A stretch of 64,000 nt of DNA from a virus. Its lineage: Duplodnaviria; Caudoviricetes. The stretch's first letter is position 1, and the number at the start of each line of letters is the position of its first letter. The stretch is from IMG/VR virus record IMGVR_UViG_3300022752_000014. One strand, given 5' to 3'. Both the position numbers and the translations under genes were made by a program. The notes beneath the pieces are model-generated. The model made no database searches and had not been told where the DNA came from. It saw only the letters and a list, made by a program, of their open reading frames with translations. This document shows positions 4,771 to 41,100 of this stretch, one piece after another.

Positions 4771-4828
4771 GGACACTTTAAAAACTGGCACACTGACCTT
4801 CCAGAACCACCCTGGAAGGTTTTATAAT
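4771..4828 (+). promoter_or_regulatory. early-type promoter, class A (upstream box, stem-loop, -10)
   Basis: GGACACTTTAAAAACTGGCAC, perfect inverted repeat ACCTTCCAG/CTGGAAGGT (4796-4820), TATAAT at 4823-4828. Confidence 0.7.
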
Positions 4829-4953
4829 AGGTGAAGACACACGAAACCGATGAGGTACTCCACACTGGACAGATTGATTTTTGTCACATCCTTCATCTGG
4901 ATGACGCACTGGGGTGTTAAAGTATCTGAAGTGGCACTCAACGCACTATTCTG

Positions 4954-16023: not shown

Positions 16024-16069
16024 AACTGTCACAAGGGCACTGGACAAGTGCCCTTTTTTCATATATAGT
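16024..16069 (+). promoter_or_regulatory. terminator-like hairpin that also carries a sigma70-like promoter, class A
   Basis: AAGGGCAC/GTGCCCTT stem followed by a T-run; TGGACA 16041-16046, 17 bp, TATAGT 16064-16069; AACTGTCAC box upstream. Confidence 0.7.
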
Positions 16070-16090: not shown

Positions 16091-16564
16091 ATGAACATCA
16101 AAGCAGTTCTACTTGCAAGTTTGATTGCAGCACCTATTCCTGCTTTTGCTCAACAGACTAACATCTATTCTGTCTGCACAAACTATCAAGAAAACTATAC
16201 GCCTGGATATTATGATAGTTATGGCAACTATGTTTCTGGTCGCGTAAATACAGAACGCTATAATGTTCAGTGCGGAACTGGTACATATTATCGCCCGAAC
16301 GGTGGCAATGTTTATCAATCTCCTGTCGCAGTTCCTATTCAACAACCACAGTATCGCCAACGCATCTGTAATCCTACTGCTGGTGCAGCATTAGGCGCTG
16401 GACTTGCATCTGCACTGACTGGCAATAGTTACAATTACGGTGGAAGTTATCAGCGAAACTATAATCGCAATAGTTCTTCTGGTAGTTGGAGTAATTATGG
16501 CACAAACAGTAATGGATGGACGCTATTTGGTGCTGGTCTGGGTGCATTGCTTTACAGTTGCTAA
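16091..16564 (+). CDS. exported/membrane protein with glycine-zipper-like helices
   Basis: Signal-like N-terminus (APIPAFA-Q); AGAALGAGLASAL and LFGAGLGALL. Confidence 0.7.
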   Translation: MNIKAVLLASLIAAPIPAFAQQTNIYSVCTNYQENYTPGYYDSYGNYVSGRVNTERYNVQCGTGTYYRPNGGNVYQSPVAVPIQQPQYRQRICNPTAGAALGAGLASALTGNSYNYGGSYQRNYNRNSSSGSWSNYGTNSNGWTLFGAGLGALLYSC

Positions 16565-16592
16565 GGGGGGACGCCCAAAGTGGATCTATAGT
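16563..16592 (+). promoter_or_regulatory. G6 element copy 1 (GGATCT variant)
   Basis: Overlaps the TAA of the upstream gene. Confidence 0.8.
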
Positions 16593-16609
16593 ATAAGCAC
16601 AACTCTCAA

Positions 16610-17023: not shown

Positions 17024-18498
17024 GTAAGAAGTACGTCATCACTTTCGCTCTTGGTTTCATTGCTATGATTGGATGGAATGTATTTTTAATCCAACGCGAT
17101 GATGCAATGTATAAAGCATACTATCGCCAGCAAGCAATAGATAATCTTAAGCATCGCCCAAGTCTTGAGATTCGGTGATATACTTTCTTATCATCTCAGC
17201 AGCATTTGGATGGTTTTTTACTGTCCTATTCTCCAAACACTTTGATTACCTAGACGAAAATGACACCAAAACGCATCAAAGACCTCATCAAAAAAGCAGA
17301 GATGAATAAAGCAGCAGAAGAGTTTTGGAAGGAAATTGAAGCAGAAGCAGCAAAGTATGAGGTTCCTGTTGATTATTATCTTGCGGAATTTTATTGATGA
17401 CTTTTCTGTTTGGAATGGGACTGGGTTCTCTACTCACAATCGGTGCAGCATTTATCTTTGCTGCTGACCGAAATATCCTTGACGAAGGCGACGAAAACTA
17501 TTACAATTAAGGAGTAATTTACACAAAACAATGACACAGAAGTTTCTTTACATCGTTCAGCACTATGTTCCTTTTCCTGCTAGTGAATATGGTGGAGTTT
17601 GGAATGTAATTGCCGAAGATGATGATGAGTGTTTTGATCTCATCTCTGCCGAAGATAATGGTGGTTTCTATGAGAAATACTATAGTGATCTCAAAGAGAA
17701 CATCTTGAACTCGCAAACATTTGCACTTGCTGAAGATGTAGATTCTAGTGTTGTTGAAAGTTTTACTACTTGATGTTAAATGAATTTCCTCACAAATCTC
17801 CAAAAGGTTATTCTTACGAATTTACCGAGTTCAAGCGAAACGTTGTCGCCATTTGGTTACGTCATTCTGCTGTCTATGACTATAATAATGGTAAATCTGT
17901 TCGGACCATTTGGGGGTTCTTCAACACCAAAACCAAAAAATATCATTTACCCGTCAACAGTTCAACAGTTGGTGGTGTAGTAAATATAAAGGATACGCGG
18001 AATTATACCGCGATGCCTATCAAACAAACACCTTTAGAAAGTGCATTTGTATGACCTACGAACCCAAATTCAATGACTATGTGAAGTGGAATAACGGAAA
18101 AGGTGTTGAGGGTTGGGTTTATTTCAAAGATAAAGAGTATATTACAATTGAAGAATTGGTGCGTCCTAAAGATAAGACTAACTATAAAGCGTGTTCAATA
18201 CATCGGAATGACCGATTACTTGTGGTTTGTTACAAAGAACAGTGGTGTGAGTTAGAGTATGTCAAAACCAGAGAATCGGTGTATGAAGAAGAAAAAGAGC
18301 AAAACACTTTGGCGCTGGTGGGCGAAAGCACTTGGGGAGAAGGCAACGAAAAATGACAGAGAAGCAGACTACATTGCTGGTGTACGGACTTTTATATTCT
18401 TCACTTATCTCATTACTAATCTTTTTATTTGTGCGGGGGTCATAAGGCACTGGAATGATGTCCCAACAATAAATAATGAAAAAGTGTTGGTAAAATGA
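17020..18498 (+). other. small hypothetical genes (17020-17178, several micro-ORFs to ~17510, 17531-17773, 17770-18054, ~18051-18356, ORF ending 18498)
   Basis: Co-oriented, mostly coupled ORFs. Confidence 0.6.
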
Positions 18499-18686
18499 AG
18501 ACGTTTCAGCAATTTATGGAACAAGTTCCTGCAATGGAACCTAACTTTTATAGTCAGCAAGTTGCAAGACGCCAAGCAACACAAAAGACTGCACATATTA
18601 AGCACGTTCATTCCGAATTAGGTGCTGAAGCAAGAGCACAACAAGCAGCGAAACGTGCTAATATGAGAGCAATTCTGTCCCGTTGA
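18495..18686 (+). CDS. putative internal head protein with a T4 IP-like N-terminus
   Basis: MKTFQQFMEQ; ATAAATA at 18469-18475. Confidence 0.6.
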   Translation: MKTFQQFMEQVPAMEPNFYSQQVARRQATQKTAHIKHVHSELGAEARAQQAAKRANMRAILSR

Positions 18687-18690
18687 TTCA

Positions 18691-18720
18691 AAGGGGGGAC
18701 GCCCAAAGTGGACCTATAGT
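18691..18720 (+). promoter_or_regulatory. G6 element copy 2
   Basis: Exact consensus, 4 bp after the TGA. Confidence 0.8.
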
Positions 18721-18738
18721 GTAAGCAACAAACGAATT

Positions 18739-18881: not shown

Positions 18882-19082
18882 ATGTCTGAAACTATTGCCA
18901 ACGTTCTGCCTCACCTGAAAGAACTTCAACAAGATTGGCGGCGACAAGATTTTGTATTCACAAAGGATCAACAACAACAATACGATCTGTTGATTGCAAC
19001 TCGCCGCGAACGTGTGCGCCAACTGTATGAAGAAGGTCGCGTCTTCAAAGGTTCATATAAAGCAAAGGAAGAGGAGTTCTAA
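18882..19082 (+). CDS. hypothetical protein
   Basis: ATG 18882 inside the ORF-track 18873 ORF. Confidence 0.65.
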   Translation: MSETIANVLPHLKELQQDWRRQDFVFTKDQQQQYDLLIATRRERVRQLYEEGRVFKGSYKAKEEEF

Positions 19083-19108
19083 ATACTAAAAAGAGTGTTT
19101 AGATAACG

Positions 19109-19708
19109 ATGAAGACGTTTCAGGAGTTTATGTCTCTTTGTGAAGATGTTCAGACGGGAGAAGACAAATCCAAAGCACTTGGATTTGCTGCAACCATCAA
19201 AACTGCACAAAAAGGTGGAAGAATCCGCCCTGAACGTAAAAAGACAACTCCTGAAATACGTCGCGTAAAAGCAGTTGGTGGTGGAAAGACCGAACCAGTT
19301 GAGTATAAACCAAGAAAAGACATTGGAACTGAACGTAAAGCAGAAACAAGAGTCCAGCAACCAGAACAAGAACGTGGAAGTGCAAGAGAAGCACAATTAG
19401 CAGCAGCAAAAGAAGAAAGAAGGAAAGCAGCACAAGCAAGAATTGCTGCAAAGAAAGCAGGTGCAAAACCTGAAGCAGCAAAACCAAAAGCAAAAGAAGC
19501 AGAAAAGGCAGCAACAAAATTACTGTCTAAAAAGAAACCAGAAACAAAACCAGCAGCAGGATACAAACCACCCAAAGCATCGGGACTTTCTACAAAAGAA
19601 AGAAAAGCACTCCTCAAGAAAGGTGAAAGAACTTTGCGTGATATTGTTCTCTCATCAACAGGTAAAAAGTCCGAAAAGGAACTTAAGCACAAATATACCT
19701 CCAAGTAA
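19109..19708 (+). CDS. Lys/Ala-rich putative internal head / DNA-binding protein
   Basis: MKTFQEFMSLCE N-terminus; histone-like K/A/P tract; CTAAATA at 19079-19085. Confidence 0.65.
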   Translation: MKTFQEFMSLCEDVQTGEDKSKALGFAATIKTAQKGGRIRPERKKTTPEIRRVKAVGGGKTEPVEYKPRKDIGTERKAETRVQQPEQERGSAREAQLAAAKEERRKAAQARIAAKKAGAKPEAAKPKAKEAEKAATKLLSKKKPETKPAAGYKPPKASGLSTKERKALLKKGERTLRDIVLSSTGKKSEKELKHKYTSK

Positions 19709-19710
19709 TT

Positions 19711-19740
19711 AAGGGGGGACGCGCAAAGTGGACCTATAAT
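19711..19740 (+). promoter_or_regulatory. G6 element copy 3 (GCGC, TATAAT variant)
   Basis: 2 bp after the TAA. Confidence 0.8.
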
Positions 19741-19780
19741 AGATACGCCACTAGACCCTTCTAGAATCGCCTACAACATC

Positions 19781-21590: not shown

Positions 21591-21773
21591 ATGAAAGAGG
21601 GTTTCTTAGTTTCTAATGGACTCTACGCTGCTGTACCTTATGGCAACAAAGGATACATCATTATACACAATGGTCAGCAACTTGAGAAAGTGTGTAGAAC
21701 TGAAGATTCTGCACGAAAGTATATCAATGCTCATCGTAAGGGTAAATCAGTCGCACAACTTCCCGTTGATTAA
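21591..21773 (+). CDS. hypothetical protein
   Basis: Its stop abuts copy 4. Confidence 0.65.
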   Translation: MKEGFLVSNGLYAAVPYGNKGYIIIHNGQQLEKVCRTEDSARKYINAHRKGKSVAQLPVD

Positions 21774-21803
21774 AAGGGGGGACGTGCAAAGTGGACCTAT
21801 AGT
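21774..21803 (+). promoter_or_regulatory. G6 element copy 4 (GTGC variant)
   Basis: Directly after the TAA. Confidence 0.8.
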
Positions 21804-21817
21804 ATCACCAAAAAATT

Positions 21818-22705
21818 ATGTTTGTCACTGAGGATCTCAAATCTGCTGTGAATGAGGCAGAGTCATTTCAACAAGAGAGCAGTTATTCTGACTTGATTTG
21901 TCTCAAATCCACGAAAGGTGGTGTTGGTCTTAACACCTTTGAGACTGCACTTGTCAATGCCAAAGAGTATATGAGCGATGAGGATGTTACGTTCTATCGT
22001 AACTTTTATCGCAACTATTCTTCTCCTCTTTGTGTTCTTCCTAAAGGGCACAGTGGCAAATGTTCTTGTTCCTATGGTAAGTTCTTTGTTGATAAGTTTG
22101 CAAAGAAAATTAAGGATTGTGATACTACTCCTGGAGATGATGACATTCTCTACAAAAATCGAGCACGTCGTATCTTTCCCATTCAGGTTAATAAGAATCA
22201 ATACACAGTTCTGAACGCAAAATATACTTGGAAGGCAAAAAATATCAAAATGAAAGCAGCAATCCCCGCTGAGTTTGGTGGCACTAATTTCACCATTGCC
22301 ACCGCACATTTTGACTTTGCTGCTATTTTGCTGCTGCAAAAAGGAATTGAGCATAAACTATCCGAAGATGTGGAGTTTAAGTTGCTTGAACGTGCTCAAG
22401 ACATTGTTGATGAGTTTGTAGCACAGGGCATCGACATTGTTGATGAGAATGGACAACTTTGTTGCCCTGTGTTAGGATGTACTATTGAACCAGAATGGTA
22501 CGAGACTGATGATAAGAACCCAAATCAAGTTCAGTTTGGTCACGTCCAACCGATTCGCTCCGATAAGTATATGACCCGTGGTGGTAATGTTGTACCTATC
22601 ACCCGCAACGGTAACCTAATGCAATCCGATAAATCTATTCAGCAAACTTATGCAGACCAAGAAGCAGCAGTCGAACGTCGTAAAGCAAGGAGATTGCCTT
22701 GTTGA
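21818..22705 (+). CDS. putative type II restriction endonuclease, HNH-type (BstXI-like)
   Basis: LCVLPKGHSGKC, TPGDDDILYKNRARR, C-terminal CCPVLG...FGHVQP...GNVVPITRNGNLMQ; overlaps a methyltransferase gene. Confidence 0.55.
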   Translation: MFVTEDLKSAVNEAESFQQESSYSDLICLKSTKGGVGLNTFETALVNAKEYMSDEDVTFYRNFYRNYSSPLCVLPKGHSGKCSCSYGKFFVDKFAKKIKDCDTTPGDDDILYKNRARRIFPIQVNKNQYTVLNAKYTWKAKNIKMKAAIPAEFGGTNFTIATAHFDFAAILLLQKGIEHKLSEDVEFKLLERAQDIVDEFVAQGIDIVDENGQLCCPVLGCTIEPEWYETDDKNPNQVQFGHVQPIRSDKYMTRGGNVVPITRNGNLMQSDKSIQQTYADQEAAVERRKARRLPC

Positions 22706-23591
22706 GTTAGAAAAATTAGAAGATAAATCAGTCGATCTCATTCTCATTGATCCGCCATACAACATCGGCAAAGATGAATGGGACGACTTTGGAATCACCA
22801 AAAAAGGTTATCAACCAAAACCCTATACTGGTGAATCTTACTATGACTGGATGCAAGAAGTATTTGTTGCACTAAGTCGCGTTATGAAAGATTCAGGTTC
22901 ATTCTGGTTCTTTCACAATGACTTTAGAATGATGGCAGAATTGGATCGACGTATTCAATCTACCACGGACTTTGAGTATAAAAATTTTATTGTCTGGAAT
23001 AAGTTATTTCCTGGATGCAAACAAGAGGGATTCTTGAATGGTTTTGTGCAAGTTGAAGGTCTAAACAATTTCCAGAAAATGGCAGAGTATATGTTATTCT
23101 ATACTCGCAAAGATATTCATCTTAAGTTAAAAGAACGACGGATGGAGTTAGGTGTTAAATCATCTGATATTAGCAAGGAGATATTGAGTAAAACTGGTGG
23201 ATTGACTGGTTGGTACAGTAACATTGAAACTGGTAAAAATTACCCCACAGAGGAGACAATTATTCCAATTACCAAATATTTGGGATTCACAATGAACGAT
23301 CTTGTGCCAAAGTTCTATAATCAGAAGAACAGTCATTCTATTTGGCAATATGATTTTGATTCCAAAAAGATGGGTCATTTAACACCAAAACCAATCGAAT
23401 TGCTTAAAAACATTATTGTTCATTGCACTGATCCTGGTGATTTAGTTTTAGATTGTTTTGGTGGGAGTGGTAGCACTGCTGTTGCATGTATTGAAACTGA
23501 TCGTAACTATCTGTTGATCGAAAAAGAACAAAAATATGTTGAGATTGCGGAAGATAGGATAGCACGGTATTCTGCACGATTGCCTATCTGA
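22650..23591 (+). CDS. beta-class N4-C/N6-A DNA methyltransferase with an internal XRE-like HTH
   Basis: GDCL...DLILIDPPYN, HLTPKPIELL, LDCFGGSGSTA; insert LKERRMELGVKSSDIS...YSNIETGKNYP. Confidence 0.92.
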   Translation: MQTKKQQSNVVKQGDCLVELEKLEDKSVDLILIDPPYNIGKDEWDDFGITKKGYQPKPYTGESYYDWMQEVFVALSRVMKDSGSFWFFHNDFRMMAELDRRIQSTTDFEYKNFIVWNKLFPGCKQEGFLNGFVQVEGLNNFQKMAEYMLFYTRKDIHLKLKERRMELGVKSSDISKEILSKTGGLTGWYSNIETGKNYPTEETIIPITKYLGFTMNDLVPKFYNQKNSHSIWQYDFDSKKMGHLTPKPIELLKNIIVHCTDPGDLVLDCFGGSGSTAVACIETDRNYLLIEKEQKYVEIAEDRIARYSARLPI

Positions 23592-23595
23592 TTGA

Positions 23596-23625
23596 AAGGG
23601 GGGACGCCCAAAGTGGACCTATAGT
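23596..23625 (+). promoter_or_regulatory. G6 element copy 5
   Basis: Exact consensus; ATG follows immediately. Confidence 0.8.
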
Positions 23626-24516
23626 ATGAAGAACACTCATCTCGAACATCCTGAAGATTCTATCCTCAGCGGTGACCTTTCTGTGTTAGATTGGTTCACT
23701 GCTGGTGGTGACCTCAGTGTAAAGATTGACGGTGCTCCTGCTGTTGTTTGGGGTACGAATCCTGCAACTGGTAAGTTCTTTGTGGGCACCAAGAGTGTGT
23801 TCAACAAAGTAAAGATCAAGATCAACGAATCACACGAAGACATTGATGCGAACCACCAAGGAAATGTCGCGCAAATCCTTCATTGCTGTCTGGATTCTTT
23901 GCCTCGCATCGCTGGCATTGTGCAAGGTGACTTTATCGGGTTTGGTGGACTTTCGGAATACACTCCCAATACTATCACCTACCAGTTCCCAGAAGTAATC
24001 ACTCAAAGCATCATCATTGCTCCGCATACTTGTTACGTTGCGAAGAATGATCTGCGTGATGCTGTTGCAATCCCCGACTTTTATCTGTGGATTGATACAT
24101 CTCACGTCAAGTTTGTAAAACCTGAAGCATATATCGCTCACGGTCAAGATTCGTTTGCTGATGTCAAAGAAGTCTGCGATTTTGCCCGTCAAATGTCAAC
24201 AATGTGTCAGTTTGTTCAGGGTAAGCAACTTGCCAACCTGAAGAAACAACTTAATGCCAAGATTCGTGAGGGTCTTCCTATCAGCGACACTGACACCTTT
24301 GATTGCGATCCTAACTTGATTCGTCTGTGGTCATTGGTAAAATCAATCAAAGATGATTGTTTGTTCCTGTGTCGCAATTATGGTCCTGCAGCATATCTGA
24401 ACAGCAACAGAATTGATGCGGAAGGTTATGTCCTCACCAATCAGTTTGGTATGATGAAGTTGGTCAATCGTGAGGTATTCTCTCATGCAAACTTCAATCT
24501 AGCAAAGAATTGGTAA
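23626..24516 (+). CDS. cyanophage protein (DUF6267-like) with nucleotidyltransferase/ligase-like motifs
   Basis: MKNTHLEHPED; SVKIDG, VQGDF, AEGYVL, MMKLVN. Confidence 0.6.
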   Translation: MKNTHLEHPEDSILSGDLSVLDWFTAGGDLSVKIDGAPAVVWGTNPATGKFFVGTKSVFNKVKIKINESHEDIDANHQGNVAQILHCCLDSLPRIAGIVQGDFIGFGGLSEYTPNTITYQFPEVITQSIIIAPHTCYVAKNDLRDAVAIPDFYLWIDTSHVKFVKPEAYIAHGQDSFADVKEVCDFARQMSTMCQFVQGKQLANLKKQLNAKIREGLPISDTDTFDCDPNLIRLWSLVKSIKDDCLFLCRNYGPAAYLNSNRIDAEGYVLTNQFGMMKLVNREVFSHANFNLAKNW

Positions 24517-24544
24517 GGGGGGACGCCCAAAGTGGACCTATAGT
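24515..24544 (+). promoter_or_regulatory. G6 element copy 6
   Basis: Overlaps the TAA; ATG follows immediately. Confidence 0.8.
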
Positions 24545-25003
24545 ATGAGCAACACTACCATGCAAGTCCAAGCACAGCAAGTCATTGCAGATTCGGTCCT
24601 TAAGAATACCTATCTGCTGATTGAAGCACTCAAAGACAATTATCGTCAGTATTCTATCCGTTCTCATCAACGTTCTGTAGAGAACTTTGACTTTACTTAT
24701 GATGGATCTCCTTCGGTTCAGTCGCAATATCATCAGCAGAAGATTGATGAACTCAAGTCTGGCAAGTGTGACATTGATTATACCATTGAGTCTGGCAAAA
24801 AGTATCACAAAGTCATCTTTATTGATGGTGGCGGTGGTCGCTCTGCTCACTGCTTCGTTGACAAAAAGACTGGCGAAGTGTATAAGTCGGAATCCTGGAA
24901 GTCTCCTGCCAAAGGTGTACGTTACGACCTGCGATTGATCGCTGATCGTGAATACCTGCTGGAAAATGCTGATTGGTCGGGTGGTTATTTGTACGCAAAG
25001 TGA
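24545..25003 (+). CDS. phage hypothetical protein
   Basis: GKKYHKV...HCFVDKKTGEVYKSESWKSPAKGVRYDL. Confidence 0.75.
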   Translation: MSNTTMQVQAQQVIADSVLKNTYLLIEALKDNYRQYSIRSHQRSVENFDFTYDGSPSVQSQYHQQKIDELKSGKCDIDYTIESGKKYHKVIFIDGGGGRSAHCFVDKKTGEVYKSESWKSPAKGVRYDLRLIADREYLLENADWSGGYLYAK

Positions 25004-25008
25004 TTGAA

Positions 25009-25272
25009 ATGACTTACTCTAACCTCTCCAAGATTCGCCCGAAGTTGAGAACATCGGGCAACATTACTGGTAATTTTGGTAAATCAAAGGTCAAAGCAGG
25101 ATCTACACTCAATGACATTGGTGTAAGTAATGCTGAAGTCATCAAATGTACCACACAAGATGAATACCTGAAGCGACTGTATTATGCTTTTGATAACACT
25201 TCCGAACCTAAACTTCGTCAGTTCATTTATACTGAGATCAAGAAGATTCACATTCAGAGAGGAACTTGGTAA
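25009..25272 (+). CDS. hypothetical protein
   Basis: MTYSNLSKIRPKLRT; ATG 25009. Confidence 0.7.
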   Translation: MTYSNLSKIRPKLRTSGNITGNFGKSKVKAGSTLNDIGVSNAEVIKCTTQDEYLKRLYYAFDNTSEPKLRQFIYTEIKKIHIQRGTW

Positions 25273-25281
25273 GGTGATGCA

Positions 25282-25311
25282 AAGGGGGGACGCCCAAAGT
25301 GGACCTATAGT
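25282..25311 (+). promoter_or_regulatory. G6 element copy 7
   Basis: Exact consensus; ATG follows. Confidence 0.8.
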
Positions 25312-26327
25312 ATGAGCAACACTACGATGGATCAAGTCTTCCACTATCACACCAACTGGAAAGAGGGTAAAGTGAATCAAATGTGGATTCAGCAAGTTAC
25401 ACCCGAATGGCAAGAATGTGACCACAAATACGTTGCCATCGCTCTCAATCCTGAAACTAACAAAAGCATGGTAATGTCTCATCCTCGCAGTCATTATGAT
25501 ACTCTCCAGTGGGTTCGTAAGTTCTGCGGTTCTTTCTGCATCCTGAACTGATTATGAAAAACTATCGTCTGTTGATTGAGTATTGGGTTCCTGATGAAGA
25601 TGAGAACCTATACGAAGAAAAGTTCATTCAATCGCGTTCATCTTGTGGTAAAATTGCTGATGATTACTTAGCACAAGACCGCACAAATCTTATCCGTTCC
25701 GTTGAAGTTACCCCTGTTTGATTATGGCAAATAACAATACTCTCGCACATCTTCGTGATCGTGTGCAACGTTTGATTGAACAACAGGGCGAAGATGCACC
25801 TGCTGCTGCATTTATCTTTACCAACGAAGATGTATTTGTTTGGGATGAAGATGGTGGCAATCAAATACCTGTAGAGCGTGATATTGCGTTCGACATTCTC
25901 AACGAAGTTGAAGACTATGATTATATCTACACGCAAGTGTTTGATCTCATCGAAGAAGAAATCAAGTCTCGCAATCTTAACAACAAATGACTGAGCACAC
26001 TGGTTACACTTTCAATCGCGTTGAGTTCACTGCAAACGAGGAAACTTGCATCCTGAAGTTTCTCAATGAAGCACGAGAATGTGGATACCCAAGTAAGAAC
26101 GAACAATGGTATCCTGTCATCGATTCTATCATTCAAAAGTTTTTCGATTCTAACATTCAAGAAGCACAGGAGTTTCAGACACGATGAAGTACATTGTTGA
26201 TCTATACGTTGGTGGTAAAGTCTTCAAGGAAGAAGTACAAGCAAACTCACCAAAAGATGCACGAGAGACTGCACTTGCTCGCAATCCTACTGCAAAAGTT
26301 GTGAGTGTCAATGTCAGTTTTCGATGA
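25312..26327 (+). other. module of five small genes (25312-25551, 25554-25721, ~25724-25990, 25987-26187, 26184-26327)
   Basis: Co-oriented, closely spaced ORFs; two read by hand. Confidence 0.7.
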
Positions 26328-26331
26328 TTGA

Positions 26332-26361
26332 AAGGGGGGACGCCCAAAGTGGACCTATAGT
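26332..26361 (+). promoter_or_regulatory. G6 element copy 8
   Basis: Exact consensus; ATG follows. Confidence 0.8.
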
Positions 26362-26932
26362 ATGAGAACAACTTTCACCGTCCGTTTTGATTCCAATGCC
26401 CTGGATTCTCCAGAGTACATTGGACCTTTCTACTCCGAAGATGATGCCCAAGACTATTGCGATGCCCGTAACGGTTCTTTAGCACTTTCTGGGATTCCTT
26501 CTTCTGTTGCTTGTTACTCTGTTGTTGACTGATGATGACACAAACCACTCTTACTTTTGAGGAGATTGATGCTCTCCTTAAGTTCATTGAGTTTCACACT
26601 GATTCATTACGAATTGATGAAGAATCTGCGGAGGAATTGAATGAACTTATTGGGTGCGATGTTGATGCACTCTACAATAAACTTTCTGAAATGCAGGATG
26701 AAGTCTAATGCAATTCCAAGTTACCACAATCGAGTTTGATTTTACTGAAGATAATGACATTCTGCGTGGCACAGATGCAGAATGGCAAGAATACCAACAA
26801 ATCGTAATTGATGACACGTTAGCAACAATTTGGGAGGCATGTGATGAAGATGATCTAGTCGAAGAGATTACATGTGCAACTGGTTGGTGTATCAAGTCCA
26901 TCGATTATCGCCATGTTCTTAACACTTTCTAA
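26362..26932 (+). other. module of three small acidic genes (26362-26532, 26532-26708, 26708-26932)
   Basis: TGATG/TAATG overlaps. Confidence 0.7.
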
Positions 26933-26943
26933 TTGATGAAACA

Positions 26944-26973
26944 AAGGGGGGACGCCCAAAGTGGACCTATAGT
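26944..26973 (+). promoter_or_regulatory. G6 element copy 9
   Basis: Exact consensus; ATG follows. Confidence 0.8.
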
Positions 26974-27695
26974 ATGAACACTACTCCTTTCAACTTCCAA
27001 ACCGACATCACTCCTGCACTTCTGGAGTTTATGCTCAATACTGCACCTTTCACTGATTTGAATGATTGTGTAGATTTTGTCTGCAATGTTTTTGACCTCG
27101 ATGCAACTGATGAATTGATTGATTCGATTGCTGATGAGTTCGATGCTTTCTTCGGTAACTGAAATGTTTATTCTGAATGATACAGCAAAGAATGATTCTG
27201 CTGTTCAACTTGCACTGAGAGAGTATGCACAACGTCTTCAAGATGAGGAAGATTATCGTCAGAAAGTTTTATCAGGTGAGGTAATTCCACAACGCACAAC
27301 AGTTCATAACATCTCTGACCGTGACTAAAATTATCTCACTTGTGTTCATTGTAGCACTACTTTTCTCACCGTCGATTCGTTCACTGACTGCCAACACTTT
27401 ACATACTGTTGCTGACATTATCTCACCACAACAATGACATTCTCAACTGACCAAATCTCCTCTCTTAAAGCACTCATTGAGTTTCATGATGATTGGGAAG
27501 AATTAAGCGAACTTCTTGGCACTGATATTGAAACTCTCTACAATGTAGTCTGCTCACTTGATAAAAACAATGATTGAAACTGATTATCACACAATTCCCA
27601 CAAACATCTACGACAAGATTAAAGAACAAGCAGAGGAGTTAGGTATTTCGATTGATTACTTTTTGATGGAGTTTTGTAAGGTTTCCGATTCCTGA
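26974..27695 (+). other. module of microgenes (26974-27162, ~27164-27328, ~27321-27437, 27434-27577, ~27570-27695)
   Basis: Co-oriented short ORFs. Confidence 0.6.
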
Positions 27696-27699
27696 ATCA

Positions 27700-27729
27700 A
27701 AGGGGGGACGCCCAAAGTGGACCTATAGT
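27700..27729 (+). promoter_or_regulatory. G6 element copy 10
   Basis: Exact consensus, 4 bp after a TGA. Confidence 0.8.
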
Positions 27730-27750
27730 ATAAGCACTCAACCAACCATC

Positions 27751-28477
27751 ATGCGTAAGATCGAACAACAAATCATCTCTGCAATTCGTAACAACAAGGA
27801 TCTGAAAGTTGCGAACACTCAAGTCATCAACTATACCAACAGTTCTGATGTTTATCTGCACGGTAATCTGATCGCTCGGATTGGCGAAACCTGGATGGAA
27901 TTGTTCCATGCTGGGTATCAAACAAACACCACAAAAAGTCGTCTTAATGCACTTCTCCAAGCGTTCGGTATGGAAGGTGAGTATATCTTCCAGAAGAACT
28001 TTCAGTGGTTTATTAACTATCAAGGAGCACCGATTCCGTTCTTTAATGGTATGCGTCTGAACTGAATCTATCACTCTTCATTCACACTTACTCAACACAA
28101 ACAAAATGGAACTTACTCAAGACCAATACGATAAACTTCTTGCCAACTATATTGAGCAGATTGTTGATGGTATGGATCTCGACAGTTTGGTACAATTTGC
28201 AAGCGAACAACTTGAACTGAATCTGCGTGAAAGTTGCTCAACTCCAGATGAACTGATCGAAGAGATTTCACTCTTTTATGATGAAGACTATGTGAATGAT
28301 ATGGTGGAAAGTGTACTTAACTGATAAGAGTTTGATACAATGAGAACAACGATTCGCTGGTTTTGTCCTTATTCTCAAGGGTGGAAGTTTCAAGGGTTTA
28401 ATACCTACAATGAAGCAGAAAGAATGGTTGATTTTTATACACGAGCAGGGACGATTGCATCTATTATGACATACTAA
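27751..28477 (+). other. module of three genes (27751-28065, 28106-28324, 28340-28477)
   Basis: Co-oriented ORFs ending at a terminator. Confidence 0.7.
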
Positions 28478-28480
28478 CTC

Positions 28481-28506
28481 AGAGGGGATTACACCCCTCT
28501 TTTTTT
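28481..28506 (+). terminator. rho-independent terminator
   Basis: AGAGGGG-ATTACA-CCCCTCT followed by a T-run. Confidence 0.85.
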
Positions 28507-28729
28507 ATGCTTTTTCGTCAAAATAAGGTTAAAAAGGTATTAAATCAATTAAAAAATGTAATTAAAAATATAAATGAGTGATTTATTTGTTATTGATACG
28601 TATTCTCAATAAGGGTGATAATGCTATGAATTCGTATCAATTAGAGGGCATTAATCGTCTATTAAATGTGCTGAGACCTTGTGATTTAGACCCTTATAAA
28701 TGTGCTGAAGTCTTGTGATCTTTGCGTGC

Positions 28730-28758
28730 ATTGTATCAGCACTCCGCCAAAATGTCAA
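28730..28758 (-). promoter_or_regulatory. leftward sigma70-like promoter
   Basis: - strand TTGACA, 17 bp, TACAAT with extended TGn; no ORF downstream. Confidence 0.7.
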
Positions 28759-28815
28759 GTCCCCCGCTGTCACAAAATCCCCACAATCCCCCCGCATAAA
28801 ATCCACACCCCGCCG

Positions 28816-28863
28816 ATAAATACTCCCCAGGACGTTGACAATAATTCCCAGGTATCTTATAGT
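28816..28863 (+). promoter_or_regulatory. late ATAAATA plus near-consensus sigma70 promoter
   Basis: ATAAATA 28816-28822; TTGACA 28835-28840, 17 bp, TATAGT 28858-28863. Confidence 0.8.
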
Positions 28864-28891
28864 ATCTAAAGAACACCAACGGAGCGTACCT

Positions 28892-29065
28892 ATGTCAGTA
28901 GCGTATCAACAAGCGCAGAAGCAGCGTTATAGAATCACTCTGGATCTATCAGTGTTCGGTGACTTCGACCCCCACCAGATTGACTGGGAGAAGTTATTCA
29001 AACTGGAACCTGCGGAAAAGTGTGAAGCATACGTTGAGGACTTAAGTACACCTGACCGTTGGTGA
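28892..29065 (+). CDS. cyanophage-type hypothetical protein
   Basis: GGAG RBS, MSVAYQQAQKQRYRITLDLSV; the ORF-track TTG start is the promoter -35. Confidence 0.75.
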   Translation: MSVAYQQAQKQRYRITLDLSVFGDFDPHQIDWEKLFKLEPAEKCEAYVEDLSTPDRW

Positions 29066-29098
29066 GTTGGTAACAACGAACGTGCTGTGAGTGAATCA

Positions 29099-29128
29099 AA
29101 GGGGGGACGCTTAAAGTGGACCTATAGT
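29099..29128 (+). promoter_or_regulatory. G6 element copy 11 (GCTT variant)
   Basis: ATG follows immediately. Confidence 0.8.
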
Positions 29129-30179
29129 ATGAACATCAACGACCTCCTCTCCAGCATCGCTCTCACTGAAGAACTTGCGATGGAAAACTATCAACAACGC
29201 AATGGAGTTGTTGATTATCGCCTCGATGGAGTTTGTAATCACTACTTCCCCAAATATACCTGGAGTGGTCTTAATGACGGTGAAGTTTGCCTGACCTGTA
29301 AAGTTTCCAAGACTGTAAAAGGGCAGTTCCGTTATACCTTTCAAGTGGACGGTAAGCGTATCGCAGAGAAGATGATTGTCTCTGAGTTCCTTGCTCTTGG
29401 TGCGCTTCGGTAAGTTATACTTAAGTCTCACACAGTTCTTTACATTTTCCAAACACAAATGACCGTCACTTTCCAAACAAATCTGTCTGACACTGAGTAT
29501 AACGGTTGGACGAATTATGAAACCTGGAATGTTGCTCTCTGGATCAACAATGATGAGGGTTTGTATCGCCTTGCTCAAGAGTGTGGTGATTATCAAACCT
29601 TCTGTGATTACGTTGGTTCAGATGCAGTAACTGGTGATGGGGTTCGTTATAATGACCCCGCTGTAAATGTCGTCCAGATTGATAGTGACGTTTTCGACTA
29701 CTGATTCACACTTAACACTCACACTTTCGTTATCAACAATCATGCGTTACATTCCGTCTTCCCGTTATACTCTGGATGAGATCGCAGAGCAATGTCGTGC
29801 TGCTATCAATCGTCCCGCTCAGTATCACAAACCAGTGGTGATCAATGTTTATGATGAGGTGCGTAAGTTCTATCGCTACAATGACACTTCGAAGTTCTGG
29901 AGTTATGATGCACCACTGATCGCACAGTAAGGTATACAAAGGGGAATGAGATGCGCCCCTATAAAGACACTCACTCAACACACAGTTATTAACACTTAAC
30001 AACACAAAATGTCCAAGTCGATTGCACTTTCTCTGCTTGCTCAAGGTAACAACGGCAATGAGATTCTGTCCATTCTCGATGCACTCGTCGCTGATAATGT
30101 GAGTGGTTTTGATTATATCGAATCGCCCGTGATTGAGCAGGTGATTGGTGTTCCTACACTCAAGGAGATTGCGTTCTAA
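29129..30179 (+). other. last module genes (29129-29413, 29459-29704, ~29741-29930, 30009-30179)
   Basis: Co-oriented ORFs; YNGWTNYETWNVALWINNDEG in 29459; 30009 read by hand. Confidence 0.7.
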
Positions 30180-35126: not shown

Positions 35127-38100
35127 ATGACAGAAAAGAGAGTTCAGTTTAGCAACATCGTTCAGAACCAACTTCCTGCGTATGTTAGGGAGGAATTTCC
35201 GTTAATCTCTGAATTTCTATCACAATATTATATTTCACAAGAGTTTCAAGGCGCTCCCGTTGATCTTATTCAAAATATAGATCAATATGTAAAGGTTGAT
35301 GAAATTGCAAATAATTCAAATTCCCTATATCTTTCAACAAGTATCAATGATATTGATACTACAATTGTTGTAGATGTTGGCAAAAATCCAGAAGGGACAC
35401 TAAACTTTCCCGACTCTTATGGACTTCTCCAAATTGGTGATGAGATTATTACATATACTGGAAAAACAACAAATTCATTTACTGGTTGTATAAGAGGGTT
35501 TAGTGGAATTACTTCATATACAACTCAAAATGCTCCTGACCAACTAACTTTTAAATCATCAAAGTCTTCTTCACACAATTCTGGGACTAAAGTTGTAAAT
35601 TTAAGTTCTTTATTCTTAAAGCAATTTTTATCAAAGATAAAATATCAACTTTCTCCAGGATTTGAAGATAGAACTTTATATTCGGGATTGGATCAATCAA
35701 TCTTTTTAAAACAGATTAAAGATTTTTATCAAAGTAAAGGAACTGACGAATCTTTTATTATTTTGTTTAAAGTTTTATATGGAAAAGACGTTAAAATTAT
35801 AAAACCAAAAGAAAATCTGTTTAGACCCTCTGATGCTCAATATAGATTAACTAATGATGTAGTAGTAGAAAGCATTTCTGGAGATCCATCAGATTTAATC
35901 AACCAGACATTACAACAAAATGCATATGGAAATATATCATATGCTCGCAGTCCAATAACTTATATTGAAAAAATAGTTTCTGGTGTTGGTAATACCTATT
36001 ATAAACTAAGTTTAGACTCTGGATACAACAGGGATATTATCGCTAATGGCGCAACCGTAGGAAAATTCACAGTTCATCCACAAACAAAAATAATTGGACC
36101 AGTATCTACTGGGGTTACTGTTTTTGATGTAGATTCTACTGTTGGATTTTCTTCAAGTGGAGAACTCCTAGTAAAATATGGAGATGATAGCACAGGAATA
36201 GTTACATATACTTCAAAAACTTTAACTCAGTTTTTTGGTTGCTCTGGAGTTTCTAAAACTATCCTTGATGGAGCAGCAATTGGTATTAATACATATGCAA
36301 GCGCGTATAAACCAAATGGTTCTCTTGTAAAACTAAGAGTAACCTCTGTTTTAAATTCTACCGAAATCATTGGAGATACTCGTTATCATTCAAAAGATGA
36401 TACTTCCATAATCAGAACTTTAGGTGTTAAGATCGAAGACACCCCTTCAAAAAATTGGTTTTTTAATATTCCAGTTTCATATAAGGTGAAGTCTATTTTT
36501 TCTCTTGGCACAAATGATACTTACAATATAACAACAGATAAAAAGAATGTTTTAAAAATTGGCGATAAAGTTGATGTTATTTCAAGTTCCGGAGTTAAAA
36601 AAACTTCAACTGTCATTGACTTAATCTCTGATACTACATTCACAATAAAGGGTCAAGGATCACTTTCCTTATCTGATACTTATACTATTAAAAAAATAAT
36701 ACTTAAGGTAAATTCCTCTTTTTTCCCAGGTGCATCTACTTTAAATTCAAATGTACAGAATGTATACAAATTAAATCAAAAAACTTTAGTCTCTTCACCA
36801 TCAATTCCCAGTTATTATAATCAATCTTTAAATGCTACTAATAGATTGGTAACAATCTCCGGATCATTCTCAGGCGATACCTTTACCATCACACCAAACT
36901 CAGATCACGGATTTTATACAGGAGATTCTGTTTATTATACTCCTGCTTCTCCCACAAACTCTTTATTTGATGAAGGGATATATTTTATTAAGAGAGTAGA
37001 TTCAAATAAAATTAAACTAGCAAAAAGTAGATCAAATATTTTTAATAATATATTTGTTTCAATTTCTAGTGCAACAACAGTAACTAGTGATAAAATTGAA
37101 CTATATGATTTAAAATCAAAAACTCTTGGTTCTCAAAAAATCCTTAGAGAAATAGATACTCCTATTGAAGATGGAAATGTATATGAAACAAATCCAGGAT
37201 TTACTGGAATTTTAATTAATGGTGTAGAAGTTTTAAATTATAAAGCAAGCGAATCAATTAATTATGGAAAACTAGAAAGAGTAAACGTAATTGCTCCTGG
37301 TTCAAATTATGATATTATTAATCCACCAGTTTTAAGTATATCAGATTCTGTAGGTAGTGGTGCAACTGGTTTTTGTGCAATTAAGGGTTCTCTTCAAGAG
37401 ATTAGAATTATTGATCCTGGATTTGATTACCTAGACACTCCAATAATTAAAATTACTGGTGGCAATGGTGTTGGCGCAAAAGCATATGCCAATATGAAAT
37501 TGATTAGTCATGAATCTGTATTTAATTCGCAAGGAAATGCAGCACTTATTGATATTGGCAGTGCAACATCAACTATTGGATTTACGACATACCATAAATT
37601 TAGAAATGGCGAAAGAGTCATTTATAAAACAGACAGTCAAAGAGGAGTTGGTGGATTATCAACAGATTCATCATACTTTGTTTCAGTAAAAGATAATTTT
37701 ACAGTTAAATTACACAACACTTTGAATGATGCAATATCTGGAATTAATACCGTAGTTTTATCATCGTATGGTATAGGAAATCATAAGTTACAATCATATA
37801 ACCAAAAATCCGTTCTTAAATCAATTAACATTGAGAATCCAGGGTTTGGTTATGAAAATAAAAAAAGAACAACTACACATTTGGGAATTAATACTTCACT
37901 ATCTCAAATTGAAATTGAATCGCATAATTATGAATCAGGAGAAACTATAGTTTATACTACAGATTTTACTCCTATTGGTGGTCTTTCAACAAACACCAAC
38001 TACATCGTAACCAAAGTCAATGACAATGAATTCAAGTTATCTACCGTTGGTGTAGGTAGCACTGATTATGATTTTTACTACAAAACTAAACAGTATGTTG

Positions 38101-41100
38101 ATCTAACGTCTACAGGAATTGGTACACACACATTTAACTATCCAGAAATAAAAGTAGAACTCATAGGTAATGTTGGATTATCCTCAATTGGAACAAAAAC
38201 ATTTGATGCGGTTGTTCAACCTATTTTTAGAGGTCAAATCACTTCAGTTCATCTAACTTCAAAAGGTGTTGGATATGGTTCATCTGAAATTATTAATTTC
38301 TACAGACAACCTTCTTTTGCATTGAAGTCTGGCAAATCAGCACAATTAAACCCAATAGTATCAACAGATGGGAGACTTATAGAAGTTTTAGTTGATAATG
38401 TTGGATCTGAATACAATTCTCCACCAACCCTAACCATCATTGGAAGCGGTTCTGGTGCGGTAGTTACACCAATCATTACAAATGGTCAATTAACATCGGT
38501 TAAAGTAATTGAGAGTGGGTTGGGATATACGCAAGAGTCAACTTCTATTATTGTGACGCCTGCTGGGTCTTCTGCAGAGTTTAGTGGAAAGATTCAATCT
38601 TGGACTATTAATCTTTATAAAAAATATTATTCATCAATTACACCAGATGATGGTTTTGTTACAAAGGGATTAAATGAAAAGTTTGGTCTTCAGTATTCAC
38701 ATCTTTATGCACCAAGAAAGTTAAGAGAAATTATTCAACCAGTAGATCAGAGTGGAAATAAAGTTTATGGTAAAACTGATTTAGCAAAGGAAAACAATGT
38801 TGAAGCGAACTCTACAAGTCACTCGCCAATTATTGGATGGGCATATGATGGAAATCCAATTTATGGACCATATGGTTATGTTACAAAAACTGGTGGCATT
38901 GTTTCTCAATTAAAATCTTCATATATTTTAGAAAATAAACCAAATAGACCATCATCTACATTATTTGAGTCTGGATTTTTTGTAGAAGACTTTACTTATT
39001 ATAAAAAATCTGACGACACATTCCTTGATGAAAAAAATGGAAGATTCTGCGTAACTCCAGAATATCCTAAAGGAGTTTATGCATATTTTGCTACGTTTGA
39101 AACTTCTCCAGATAGTGGTGGAAAATTTGTAGGATACAAACAACCAAAGTTTCCATATCTAATTGGTAATTCATTTAAGTCAAAACCAAATGAATTTAAT
39201 TTCCTAAAAAATTCAAATCAAGACGATTTTGATTTGAATCAGACCAATTGGTCCAGAAATACTTATTTTTATAACTTAATAAATGATGAAGCATCGTATC
39301 CATATATTACAGTTCCTAATAAATTAAATCAAACTGTAGACGTTAAATTTGCAACTCCTGGAGTAATAGAGTCAATAGGTATTGTAACAGGTGGTCAAAA
39401 CTATAGAGTTAATGATTCTTTAGTTTTTGATAATACAAATACTCAAGGAGATGGTGCAAGTGCTAGAATTTTTAAACTTAAAGGAAAAGAAGTAACAACA
39501 GTTAGTGTTGCAACCAGTTCTATCTCTGAAGTAGAAATATATCCAGGAGAAAATAAAGATGACTATATTATTTTTGCAGAGAATCCACACAACTTTAAAA
39601 ATTACGATGATATTGCAGTATCTGGATTAAATACAACTTCATCATTACTTGAAGGTTCTTATCAAATAGGTGTGTCTACAAATATTCTTATTCTCTCTGG
39701 AATTGGAACCACTACGGGAACAATTACCACCGGCATAGGAAGTACAGGAGTAACTGGTATTATAACTTATATTAATGTAAAAGGTACTCTAAATTATCCA
39801 ATTATAAGAGAAAATGATGTTTTATCAATAGAAAATGAAAAAGTTAAAGTTCTGAACGTAGATAAATTAAATTCTAGAATTCGTGTTATTAGATCTTATC
39901 AAGGAACATCTGGTGTAGCTCACACTGCATCAACATTAATCAAAGAATCTCCAAGAAAACTTACTATTAATGCGGGATACAAAACATCTTATGATTATAG
40001 AATAAACAAGCAATTATATTTTAATCCTGCAGATTCTGTTGGATTAGGGACACTTTTTGGAGTTGGCATTGGCACTACAATTACTTTTAGTAATCCTGGA
40101 GCAGGAATAACTCAGATATTCATCCCAACAAAATCAATCTATATTCCAGGACACGGATTAGAAACAGGTGATCTTGTCACTTATTCAAATAATGGTGGGT
40201 CTTCGCTTGTAATTTCTTCTACTGGAATCGGAACAACTTCTTTATCCGACCAATCAAACGTTTATGTTGCAAAAATTTCAGATGATTTAATTGGTATTGC
40301 TACAGTTAGAGTTGGTTTAGGTTCTACAGGCACTTTCGTCGGAATCGCAAGTACTCAAAGATCTGAATCAACGGTTTACTTTATTTCAAATGGAACTGGG
40401 GTATATCATAGTTTTAAAACTAACTTTAGTGTAATTACAGGAACTATTGAAAGAAATATTGTTACGGTTTCGTGTGCTGCCACTCACGGGTTGAATAATA
40501 ATGATACTGTTTATATTGATGTCAATCCTTCAATTTCAACAACTATTACAGTTAAGTATGATGATTATAATAGAAAAGTAATAGTCAATCCAAAATCATT
40601 TGCAGGTGTCAATACATCAACAAATACAATTACAATATCCAATCACGGATTCTATAGTGGCCAAAAAGTAATTCATACCTCAACAGCACCTTCTGGTGGA
40701 TTGCAAAATGAAGGAGAATACTTTATTGTAAAAGTTGATAAAAATAATTTTAAATTATCAACTACATTCTATGGTGCAACAAAACTTATACCTACTATAG
40801 TAGGAATTACAAGTTCATCAACTGGTAATATTTCTCCTATCAATCCACCTTTAACCCTTTATAAAAATTCTCAAGTAATATTTGATGTATCCGATTCTTC
40901 TCTATCTTATGTAAATCAATCACAAAGATATCCTGCGTTTAGTTTGGATTTTTATAGAGATAGTAATTTTACTCAAATTTTTGAAACCAGCGGTAAGAAA
41001 AATACATTTGAAGTACAAAAATCTGGAATTGTTGGAGTATCGTCAAATGCAAAAGTTATTCTCACTGTTAATAGCAATATTCCACAAAAGTTATATTATA

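Follow-up and report, generated by a model that had tools for sequence, protein, structure and literature searches.

T4-like cyanophages are among the most abundant viruses of lakes and oceans, and how their early transcription is timed in the absence of MotA and AsiA is not well understood. The window analyzed here, the whole 64,000-nucleotide (nt) stretch of the IMG/VR virus record IMGVR_UViG_3300022752_000014, contains a dense series of copies of a short repeated element, called G6. Its most probable role is that of a phage-specific promoter, the upstream half of which appears to be matched to one phage protein rather than to a host sigma factor. Pfam profile matches report gp6, gp8 and neck-protein domains in large open reading frames (ORFs) of the window, the gp6 protein shares 76% amino acid (aa) identity with that of Synechococcus phage S-SM2 and 74.5% with that of Bellamy, and freshwater metagenomes, from lakes and other sources, hold DNA nearly identical to the window. 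On these grounds, the window can be assigned to an uncultured freshwater T4-like cyanomyovirus related to S-SM2. In a megablast search with the region, a single short match to a cultured phage was obtained.

Eleven copies of the G6 28-mer with at most two mismatches are found between positions 16565 and 29128, all on the plus strand; shuffled sequence returns none (Table 1). These 11 copies in 12.6 kb head groups of small genes, each of them sitting in an intergenic gap directly 3' of a stop codon and on the coding strand, and the signal is about 40 bases long. The hexamer is TATAGT in 10 of the 11 copies and TATAAT in the remaining one. As pointed out in a first, sequence-only reading of this DNA, an ATG follows TATAGT directly in copies 5, 6, 7, 8, 9 and 11, and copies 5, 8, 9 and 11 have no alternative start close by, with no in-frame ATG within 45 nt. 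The five copies devoid of an abutting ATG (1, 2, 3, 4 and 10) have one 14-40 nt downstream. That reading had also placed AGGGGG in the -35 slot, which holds for a 17-bp spacer, a 16-bp spacer giving GGGGGG, and had located most substitutions in a CCC triplet, a stretch that is likewise the least conserved one across at least 222 relatives. The two GGAC units that it described are present in this lineage and in contig L001, but most relatives carry a right-hand GTCCC, hence an inverted and not a direct repeat, and other types of the element have neither unit. The sequence RTRAGCAAC that comes after the hexamer is kept whether it is coding or not and is therefore part of the element.

Table 1. 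Copies of the G6 element and related features of the window (positions in the 64,000-nt stretch).
Feature	Position	Strand	Description
G6 copy 1	16562..16605	+	GGATC variant; ATA after hexamer; ATG 17 nt downstream
G6 copy 2	18690..18733	+	GTA after hexamer; ATG 18 nt downstream
G6 copy 3	19710..19753	+	GCGC and TATAAT variant; AGA after hexamer; ATG 40 nt downstream; begins 2 nt past the p199 stop codon
G6 copy 4	21773..21816	+	GTGC variant; ATC after hexamer; ATG 14 nt downstream
G6 copy 5	23595..23638	+	Abutting ATG at 23626, sole start of the DUF6267 ligase-like gene
G6 copy 6	24514..24557	+	Abutting ATG; second in-frame ATG 15 nt downstream of the first
G6 copy 7	25281..25324	+	Abutting ATG; second in-frame ATG 15 nt downstream of the first
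G6 copy 8	26331..26374	+	Abutting ATG; no nearby in-frame alternative
G6 copy 9	26943..26986	+	Abutting ATG; next in-frame ATG is codon 20
G6 copy 10	27699..27742	+	ATA after hexamer; ATG 21 nt downstream
G6 copy 11	29098..29141	+	GCTT variant; abutting ATG; next in-frame ATG is codon 18
p199	19109..19708	+	Basic 199-aa protein, N-terminus MKTFQEFMSLCE resembling the T4 capsid-targeting sequence
CTAAATA late-promoter-like motif	19079..19085	+	23 nt upstream of the p199 start
Terminator hairpin overlapping a TGGACA-17-TATAGT promoter, Syn9-type AACTGTCACA box	16033..16069	+	Left border of the G6 block
Strong intrinsic terminator	28481..28500	+	Stem of five GC pairs and T run
Canonical TTGACA-17-TATAGT promoter	28835..28863	+	Consensus scan; same hexamer as the G6 element

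The element is one version of a larger family, collected in two IMG/VR scans as at least 222 unique copies with the G6 box and at least 426 unique copies anchored on the core. Counted from the last base of the hexamer, a stop codon at about -36 to -34 is followed by AA, a 9-nt box, a variable triplet, AAAG, YGTCCC, TATAGT and RTRAGCAC. The core AAAG-YGTCCC-TATAGT-RTRAGCAC is common to the family, whereas every lineage has its own 9-nt box at the -35 position, and over 20 box types occur. This box is constant within one genome, while the neighbouring triplet varies; in the window, it reads GGGGGGACG and covers about -34 to -26. Among cultured phages, S-SM2 possesses 12 homologous copies with a GGGGGGTCG box, confined as in the window to the coding strand and to gaps that follow stop codons, and gathered in a single block (42.7-58.5 kb) upstream of gp25/gp6, and SynMITS9220M01 exhibits the same core with a different box, TTACTCACC. 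P-TIM68 (L239) carries 13 AT-rich copies between positions 17066 and 26036, with a GTTAGTTACC box and an AAAT-TGAC core; a leader with AAGGA is common to most of them, and an ATG-TAA mini-frame adjoins the hexamer. The G6 element was not found in the 42 kb of Bellamy examined, Syn9 has no G6 core (the position weight matrix maximum equals background), Rfam reports no family match in the window, and no description of the element was found in the literature searched. An RNA hairpin pairing GGGACG with YGTCCC, which most G6 relatives could form, was rejected as a general feature: the RNA of the window copy folds no better than shuffled sequences (z +0.73) and has no stable hairpin, S-SM2 has a T-T mismatch, and other boxes lack a complementary arm. 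Contigs from metagenome DNA and from metatranscriptome RNA both break at a 30-nt repeat, and the RNA runs hold relatives at 90-95%, DNA carry-over being possible. Public contigs contain hundreds of copies of this family, and cultured phages carry versions of it; with its common core, private box and matched protein module, it constitutes a concrete and testable system.

The gene for p199, which lies within the G6 block, has homologues among the elements in more than 80 loci, as well as in S-SM2, SynMITS9220M01, P-TIM68 and S-B05. Such homologues occur in only 10 of 50,697 phage records, and neither Syn9 nor Bellamy is among these. The characteristic N-terminus of p199 is conserved in the homologues, and late-type motifs similar to that of the window precede the homologous genes in S-SM2, SynMITS9220M01 and P-TIM68. 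The N-terminal three quarters of the protein are conserved whatever the box, while the C-terminal 45-60 residues form discrete modules that track it. Indeed, box distance correlates with the distance between p199 C-terminal modules (r 0.73), and the partial correlation given the N-terminal part is also 0.73 (Mantel test, 2000 permutations, p<=0.0005), the reverse partial correlation being -0.23. As a control, the comparison was extended to six proteins of the same loci, each cut into four: a correlation with the box (0.68, partial 0.66) is seen for the final quarter of p199 alone, and all quarters of the helicase, DUF6267, DUF7717, p137 and p104 stay at r<=0.25. One cluster of p199 N-terminal parts spans 11 box types, each with its own kind of C-terminal module, which argues for module swaps rather than shared descent. 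For the C-terminal module, modelling gives a single confident helix (residues 162-184, pLDDT 86-93), the rest of the protein being mostly disordered. Among cultured phages, S-SM2 with a G-type module, P-TIM68 with a TTA-type module and S-B05 with the module of contigs L201 and L116 fit the match between box and module. The phage factor that the sequence-only reading had invoked for the upstream half of the element thus becomes plausible in the form of p199, since the box is lineage-specific and covaries with the C-terminal module. A second small basic protein of 63 residues, encoded at 18495-18686, also starts with a capsid-targeting-like sequence, MKTFQQFMEQ, has a TAAATA motif 19 nt upstream, and has homologues in eight related contigs.

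The proposal that the element is not a standard sigma70 promoter is upheld: it has no -35 hexamer, and a consensus scan calls none of the G6 copies yet calls the TTGACA-17-TATAGT promoter at 28835. In the window, GGGGGG occupies the -35 slot, which other lineages fill with unrelated sequences; the TGn of an extended -10 is missing too. Across the 222 or more relatives, conservation of the hexamer fits TAnnnT (T.94, A.87 ... T.97/.90), the variants AGTAGT, CATAGT and TATTGT keep this pattern in either of two overlapping registers, and a CA is conserved at +6/+7 after the hexamer. Three promoters of the window use TATAGT, combined with TTGACA and TGGACA at exactly 17 bp as reported by the scan, and with TTGACT at 17 bp as read by eye. 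A start codon lies 14-36 nt downstream, in any of the three frames (61/42/56), in 73% of the 222 G6 copies listed, and the leader of this majority class is G-poor with no Shine-Dalgarno sequence. On the plus strand between 16.0 and 28.6 kb, a stem of five GC pairs followed by a T run occurs only at 16033-16055 and 28481-28500, the other matches having 3-4 GC pairs. Three other explanations were set aside. Sigma54-like and extracytoplasmic-function-like sigma factor readings are poor matches by eye, and cyanobacteria are not known to have sigma54; the arrangement of T4 genes 25 and 38, in which a hairpin bridges the Shine-Dalgarno sequence, does not account for the G-run, non-G boxes having as many abutting ATGs. 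The stretch of about 370 bp that follows the strong terminator (28500-28870) is non-coding and contains several C-runs and two divergent near-consensus promoters, at 28758-28730 on the minus strand and at 28835-28863 on the plus strand.

The abutting ATG is not a peculiarity of the window. Among the 426 copies listed, counted across all box types, 192 (45%) carry an ATG immediately 3' of the hexamer; in 181 of them, this ATG opens an ORF of at least 30 codons. A second in-frame ATG occurs within 10 codons in 93 of the 181, most often 15 nt further on, and an out-of-frame ATG within 30 nt in one; at least 35 of the 181 ORFs have no other in-frame start within 30 codons. Copies devoid of an abutting ATG mostly have GTA or ATA there, and their real start, 15-35 nt downstream, is distributed uniformly across frames. 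Compared with independent base frequencies, ATG is about 2-fold enriched after the hexamer and GTG about 4-fold depleted. Taken together, the in-frame ORFs, the 93-to-1 frame bias of second ATGs, and the enrichment of ATG with depletion of GTG indicate that the abutting ATG is recognised by ribosomes. The clearest case is the ATG at 23626, which is the genuine start of its gene, as residue 3 of the product corresponds to position 1 of the Pfam DUF6267 profile. The protein encoded at 23626-24516 (DUF6267 / phrog_455) has a KIDG (KxDG) ligase motif about 30 residues past its start and is probably ligase- or nucleotidyltransferase-like. Its gene is the most widely conserved one sitting directly on an element, and the junction between element and ATG is kept in S-SM2, SynMITS9220M01 and IMG/VR contigs. 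Such a start codon raises the question of start-site choice or leaderless translation. In Bellamy (L124), the DUF6267 homologue lies behind TTGCAA-17-TATCTT (12215-12277), with exactly 6 nt before its ATG; given this spacing, a host-type promoter is predicted to make an ordinary leaderless mRNA.

From the anatomy and distribution of the element, the frame statistics, the covariation of box and p199 and the module boundaries, all of which are established, we infer promoter activity, a start site, and the binding and injection of p199. The explanation that we favour, and to which we give about an even chance, is that G6 is the form taken in one lineage by a promoter cassette widespread among cyanomyoviruses, which the host RNA polymerase uses through a -10 hexamer and a box read by p199. 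TATAGT, or the overlapping TAGTRT, would serve this polymerase as a sigma70-type -10, and the private 9-nt box would replace the -35 hexamer, the C-terminal helix of p199 recognising this box either directly or indirectly. Apparently expressed late and targeted to the capsid, p199 would be injected with the DNA. The logic would be that of the T4 middle promoters with a MotA box, served by an unrelated and possibly virion-delivered factor. Transcription would begin at the conserved CA about 7 nt past the hexamer, producing in the majority class short leaders (~8-28 nt), poor in G and devoid of a Shine-Dalgarno sequence. Since a sigma70-type start would lie at least 7 nt downstream, the abutting ATG would be left out of the transcript made from its own element. 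It may have been created by a single A-to-G change and be used on read-through transcripts from upstream copies, which could supply ATG-containing messages because no strong terminator lies between 16.06 and 28.48 kb. Read-through appears to be the simplest way to reconcile the abutting ATG with a -10 hexamer. The copies would double as seams for swaps of gene modules. If p199 is indeed the reader and is injected, phages would have a novel means of labelling their promoters as they enter the cell, and the diversification of the boxes would be explained.

Several observations weigh against this explanation. The transcription start of every family member is a prediction from the DNA, and the 45% of listed copies with an ATG against the hexamer include the 35 or more, out of 181, that have no other in-frame start. 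Each of these promoters could not express its own gene, an odd design to have been kept from S-SM2 to SynMITS9220M01 at the DUF6267 gene. Strong conservation runs continuously from about -12 to +7, including +1 to +4, which is unusual for sigma70 promoters. As for p199, it has no recognisable DNA-binding or sigma-like domain and belongs to no Pfam or PHROG family; the TTACTCACC box is shared by SynMITS9220M01, with a TTA-type module, and S-B05, with a different C-terminal module; and the end of the p199 gene abuts one copy of the element, so that part of the covariation could reflect linkage.

In a rival reading, which takes up the sequence-only proposal, transcription would start within TATAGT or immediately past it, with the G of TATA|G or the A of ATG as first base; the enzyme, a polymerase or a form of holoenzyme, would not use the hexamer as a sigma70 -10, and the leaders would measure 0-2 nt in the ATG class and 15-35 nt in the others. 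This near-leaderless reading, which we hold to be unlikely, draws on the frequency of the abutting ATG and its function as judged by frame (192 of 426, 181 in-frame ORFs, 93 to 1), on the uniform frames where the triplet is not ATG, on the enrichment of ATG and depletion of GTG, on the DUF6267 junction kept across distant phages, and on a conserved stretch that reaches +7 as in T7-type promoters. Indeed, CTATAG and conserved downstream bases are present in the element, the same bases being also explained as a -10, and the family core matches the SP6 promoter sequence at 11 of 14 positions (-13 to +1). However, the T7/SP6-type polymerase suggested by this resemblance was sought in the window and in the complete S-SM2 genome, and no signature of a single-subunit or two-barrel RNA polymerase was found. 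PF00940 returned no match in the complete S-SM2 genome, control genomes likewise giving none; T7 motifs A and C and DxDGD, searched as patterns, are absent from all S-SM2 stop-to-stop frames of at least 500 aa; DxDGD, the only motif checked there, is absent from the four largest ORFs of the window; and no polymerase motif was found in the 3999-aa gp7-like ORF. Pfam analysis of nine large S-SM2 ORFs leaves five without any domain, which gives room for a cryptic polymerase. Moreover, the hexamer varies as a -10 does, TATAGT stands at the canonical distance from TTGACA elsewhere in the window, and read-through transcripts account for the frame bias equally well. T4-like cyanophages are also described as relying on the host RNA polymerase, the phage supplying gp55 and gp33 for late genes (PMC5780444). 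A broader claim, that many T4-like cyanophages start transcription of their accessory early block at or within TATAGT, independently of sigma70 and with 0-2-nt leaders on the mRNAs of nearly half of the cassettes, while the swappable C-terminal helix of an injected 199-aa protein reads the box, appears rather improbable.

Two further explanations keep the host polymerase or leave the promoter aside. The element might not be mainly a promoter but a site of RNA processing or stability, a p199-bound translation module independent of Shine-Dalgarno sequences, or only a seam for DNA exchange, its -10 likeness being incidental. The absence of a strong terminator inside the block would suit this, as would the start codon and first codons (MSNTT-like) built into the repeat, the gain and loss of modules exactly at the elements, and a contig from the RNA library of a relative that runs from a gene into the element, where DNA carry-over is again possible. 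We nevertheless consider it improbable: the distance from element to start is bimodal (0 or 15-36+ nt) and unsuited to a fixed translation signal, the folding of the window copy, the arms of non-G6 boxes and Rfam give no sign of an RNA structure, and the TAnnnT pattern with an A/C-rich downstream leader fits a promoter. Conversely, the elements could be -35-independent promoters served by the host polymerase alone, with the box as an operator through which p199, made later, would repress them or shut them off. The box does overlap the -35 and spacer region, a usual repressor site, most G6 relatives carry the inverted repeat GGGAC-N9-GTCCC, and the covariation fits an activator and a repressor alike. 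Yet non-G6 boxes are not palindromic, a promoter with neither a -35 nor an extended -10 TGn would be weak when unaided, and the capsid-targeting-like N-terminus and late-type promoter of p199 point to delivery at the start of infection, which makes a repressor very doubtful.

The G6 element can be compared with several known systems. PeSL cassettes of T4-type phages were reportedly treated by Arbiol in 2010. Like G6, the PeSL and PmSL of RB49/phi1, PST and nt-1 (PMC4122927) are short dense repeats on the coding strand of a hyperplastic early region, which extend up to the next gene's start codon and bound modules that are inserted, deleted or replaced, and PmSLs also have an activator box in place of the -35. 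Comeau 2014 (PMC4122927) makes no mention of cyanophages. Unlike PeSL, the window copy of G6 has no separate upstream stem-loop terminator, -35 or Shine-Dalgarno sequence; the start codon is part of G6 as it is of PeSL. This codon abuts a -10-like hexamer in 45% of the copies listed, and the box is lineage-private and tied to a phage protein. In T4, middle promoters combine a sigma70 -10 with a MotA box, (a/t)(a/t)(a/t)TGCTT(t/c)A, centred at -30 and read by MotA together with AsiA. G6 likewise associates a -10 with a phage-specific box of about 9 bp at about -35 to -26, some 13 bp from the -10, and apparently depends on a specificity factor encoded by the phage. However, GGGGGGACG is not a MotA box, the boxes of other lineages are unrelated to it too, and the position alone is analogous; in addition, the G6 spacer is filled by the extra invariant AAAG-YGTCCC core. 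T4-like cyanophages are reported to be devoid of motA and asiA (PMC5780444), and p199 differs from MotA in having no MotA-like domain and in looking virion-delivered rather than early-expressed. T7/SP6-type promoters appear to share with G6 a contiguous conserved block that ends with CTATAG, followed by conserved transcribed bases, and a lineage-specific upstream part, but the variable part of G6 lies at about -26 to -18 on the T7 numbering instead of -12 to -8, and no such polymerase was found. Overall, G6 would work most like a T4 middle promoter and evolve like PeSL and PmSL, being a member of neither by sequence or parts.

An early-gene regulatory element of Syn9 and P-TIM40 was reportedly described by Doron and colleagues in 2016. 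This element resembles G6 in not looking like a sigma70 promoter, in preceding early genes of T4-like cyanophages, and in lying in the same genome region. Syn9 has its own repeat, in which a GTG(G/T)CACA box is separated by about 30 nt from GTGTATTCT and a leader with AAGG, in at least four copies at 46-53 kb, which may be the published element. The identity of G6 with the Syn9 early element was rejected, as Syn9 has no G6 core and its repeat is different. The Syn9-type design is also present in the window, to the left of the G6 block, in at least two copies (4783-4850 and 16024-16069) comprising an AACTG(G/T)CACA box, a hairpin of about 30 nt and a -10; G6 would therefore be a second, distinct promoter class. 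Regarding p199, the internal proteins of T4 and Alt carry a capsid-targeting sequence, MKTYQEFIAE, are cut by gp21 and are injected with the DNA. p199 resembles them in its MKTFQEFMSLCE start, its very basic character and the late-type TAAATA motif upstream, and differs from them in having no sequence homology beyond the tag. We know of no T4 internal protein that reads a promoter.

The copies of the element also appear to act as PeSL-like seams for module exchange. Copies 4 and 5 bound a module (21818-23591) made of a 295-aa ORF, for which neither Pfam nor PHROG returns any match, and an overlapping N6_N4 DNA methyltransferase, resembling a restriction-modification system. This module is missing from contigs L190, L148, L147, L183 and L001, with tblastx homology lost no farther than about 35 nt from copies 4 and 5, and parts of it are located elsewhere in two other related contigs. 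Downstream of the G6 block, the 3999-aa ORF (35127-47126) matches a baseplate wedge weakly and contains a YHYH domain (residues 1227-1325), and by synteny it occupies the position annotated gp7 in S-SM2 and Bellamy; an ORF of 2487 residues with a DUF4815 domain is also present in the window. The G+C content is ~0.38-0.43 over most of positions 1-32000, the early and accessory half, with 0.34-0.35 in two 2-kb windows there, and is lower, 0.31-0.36, over positions 32000-64000, the baseplate and structural half.

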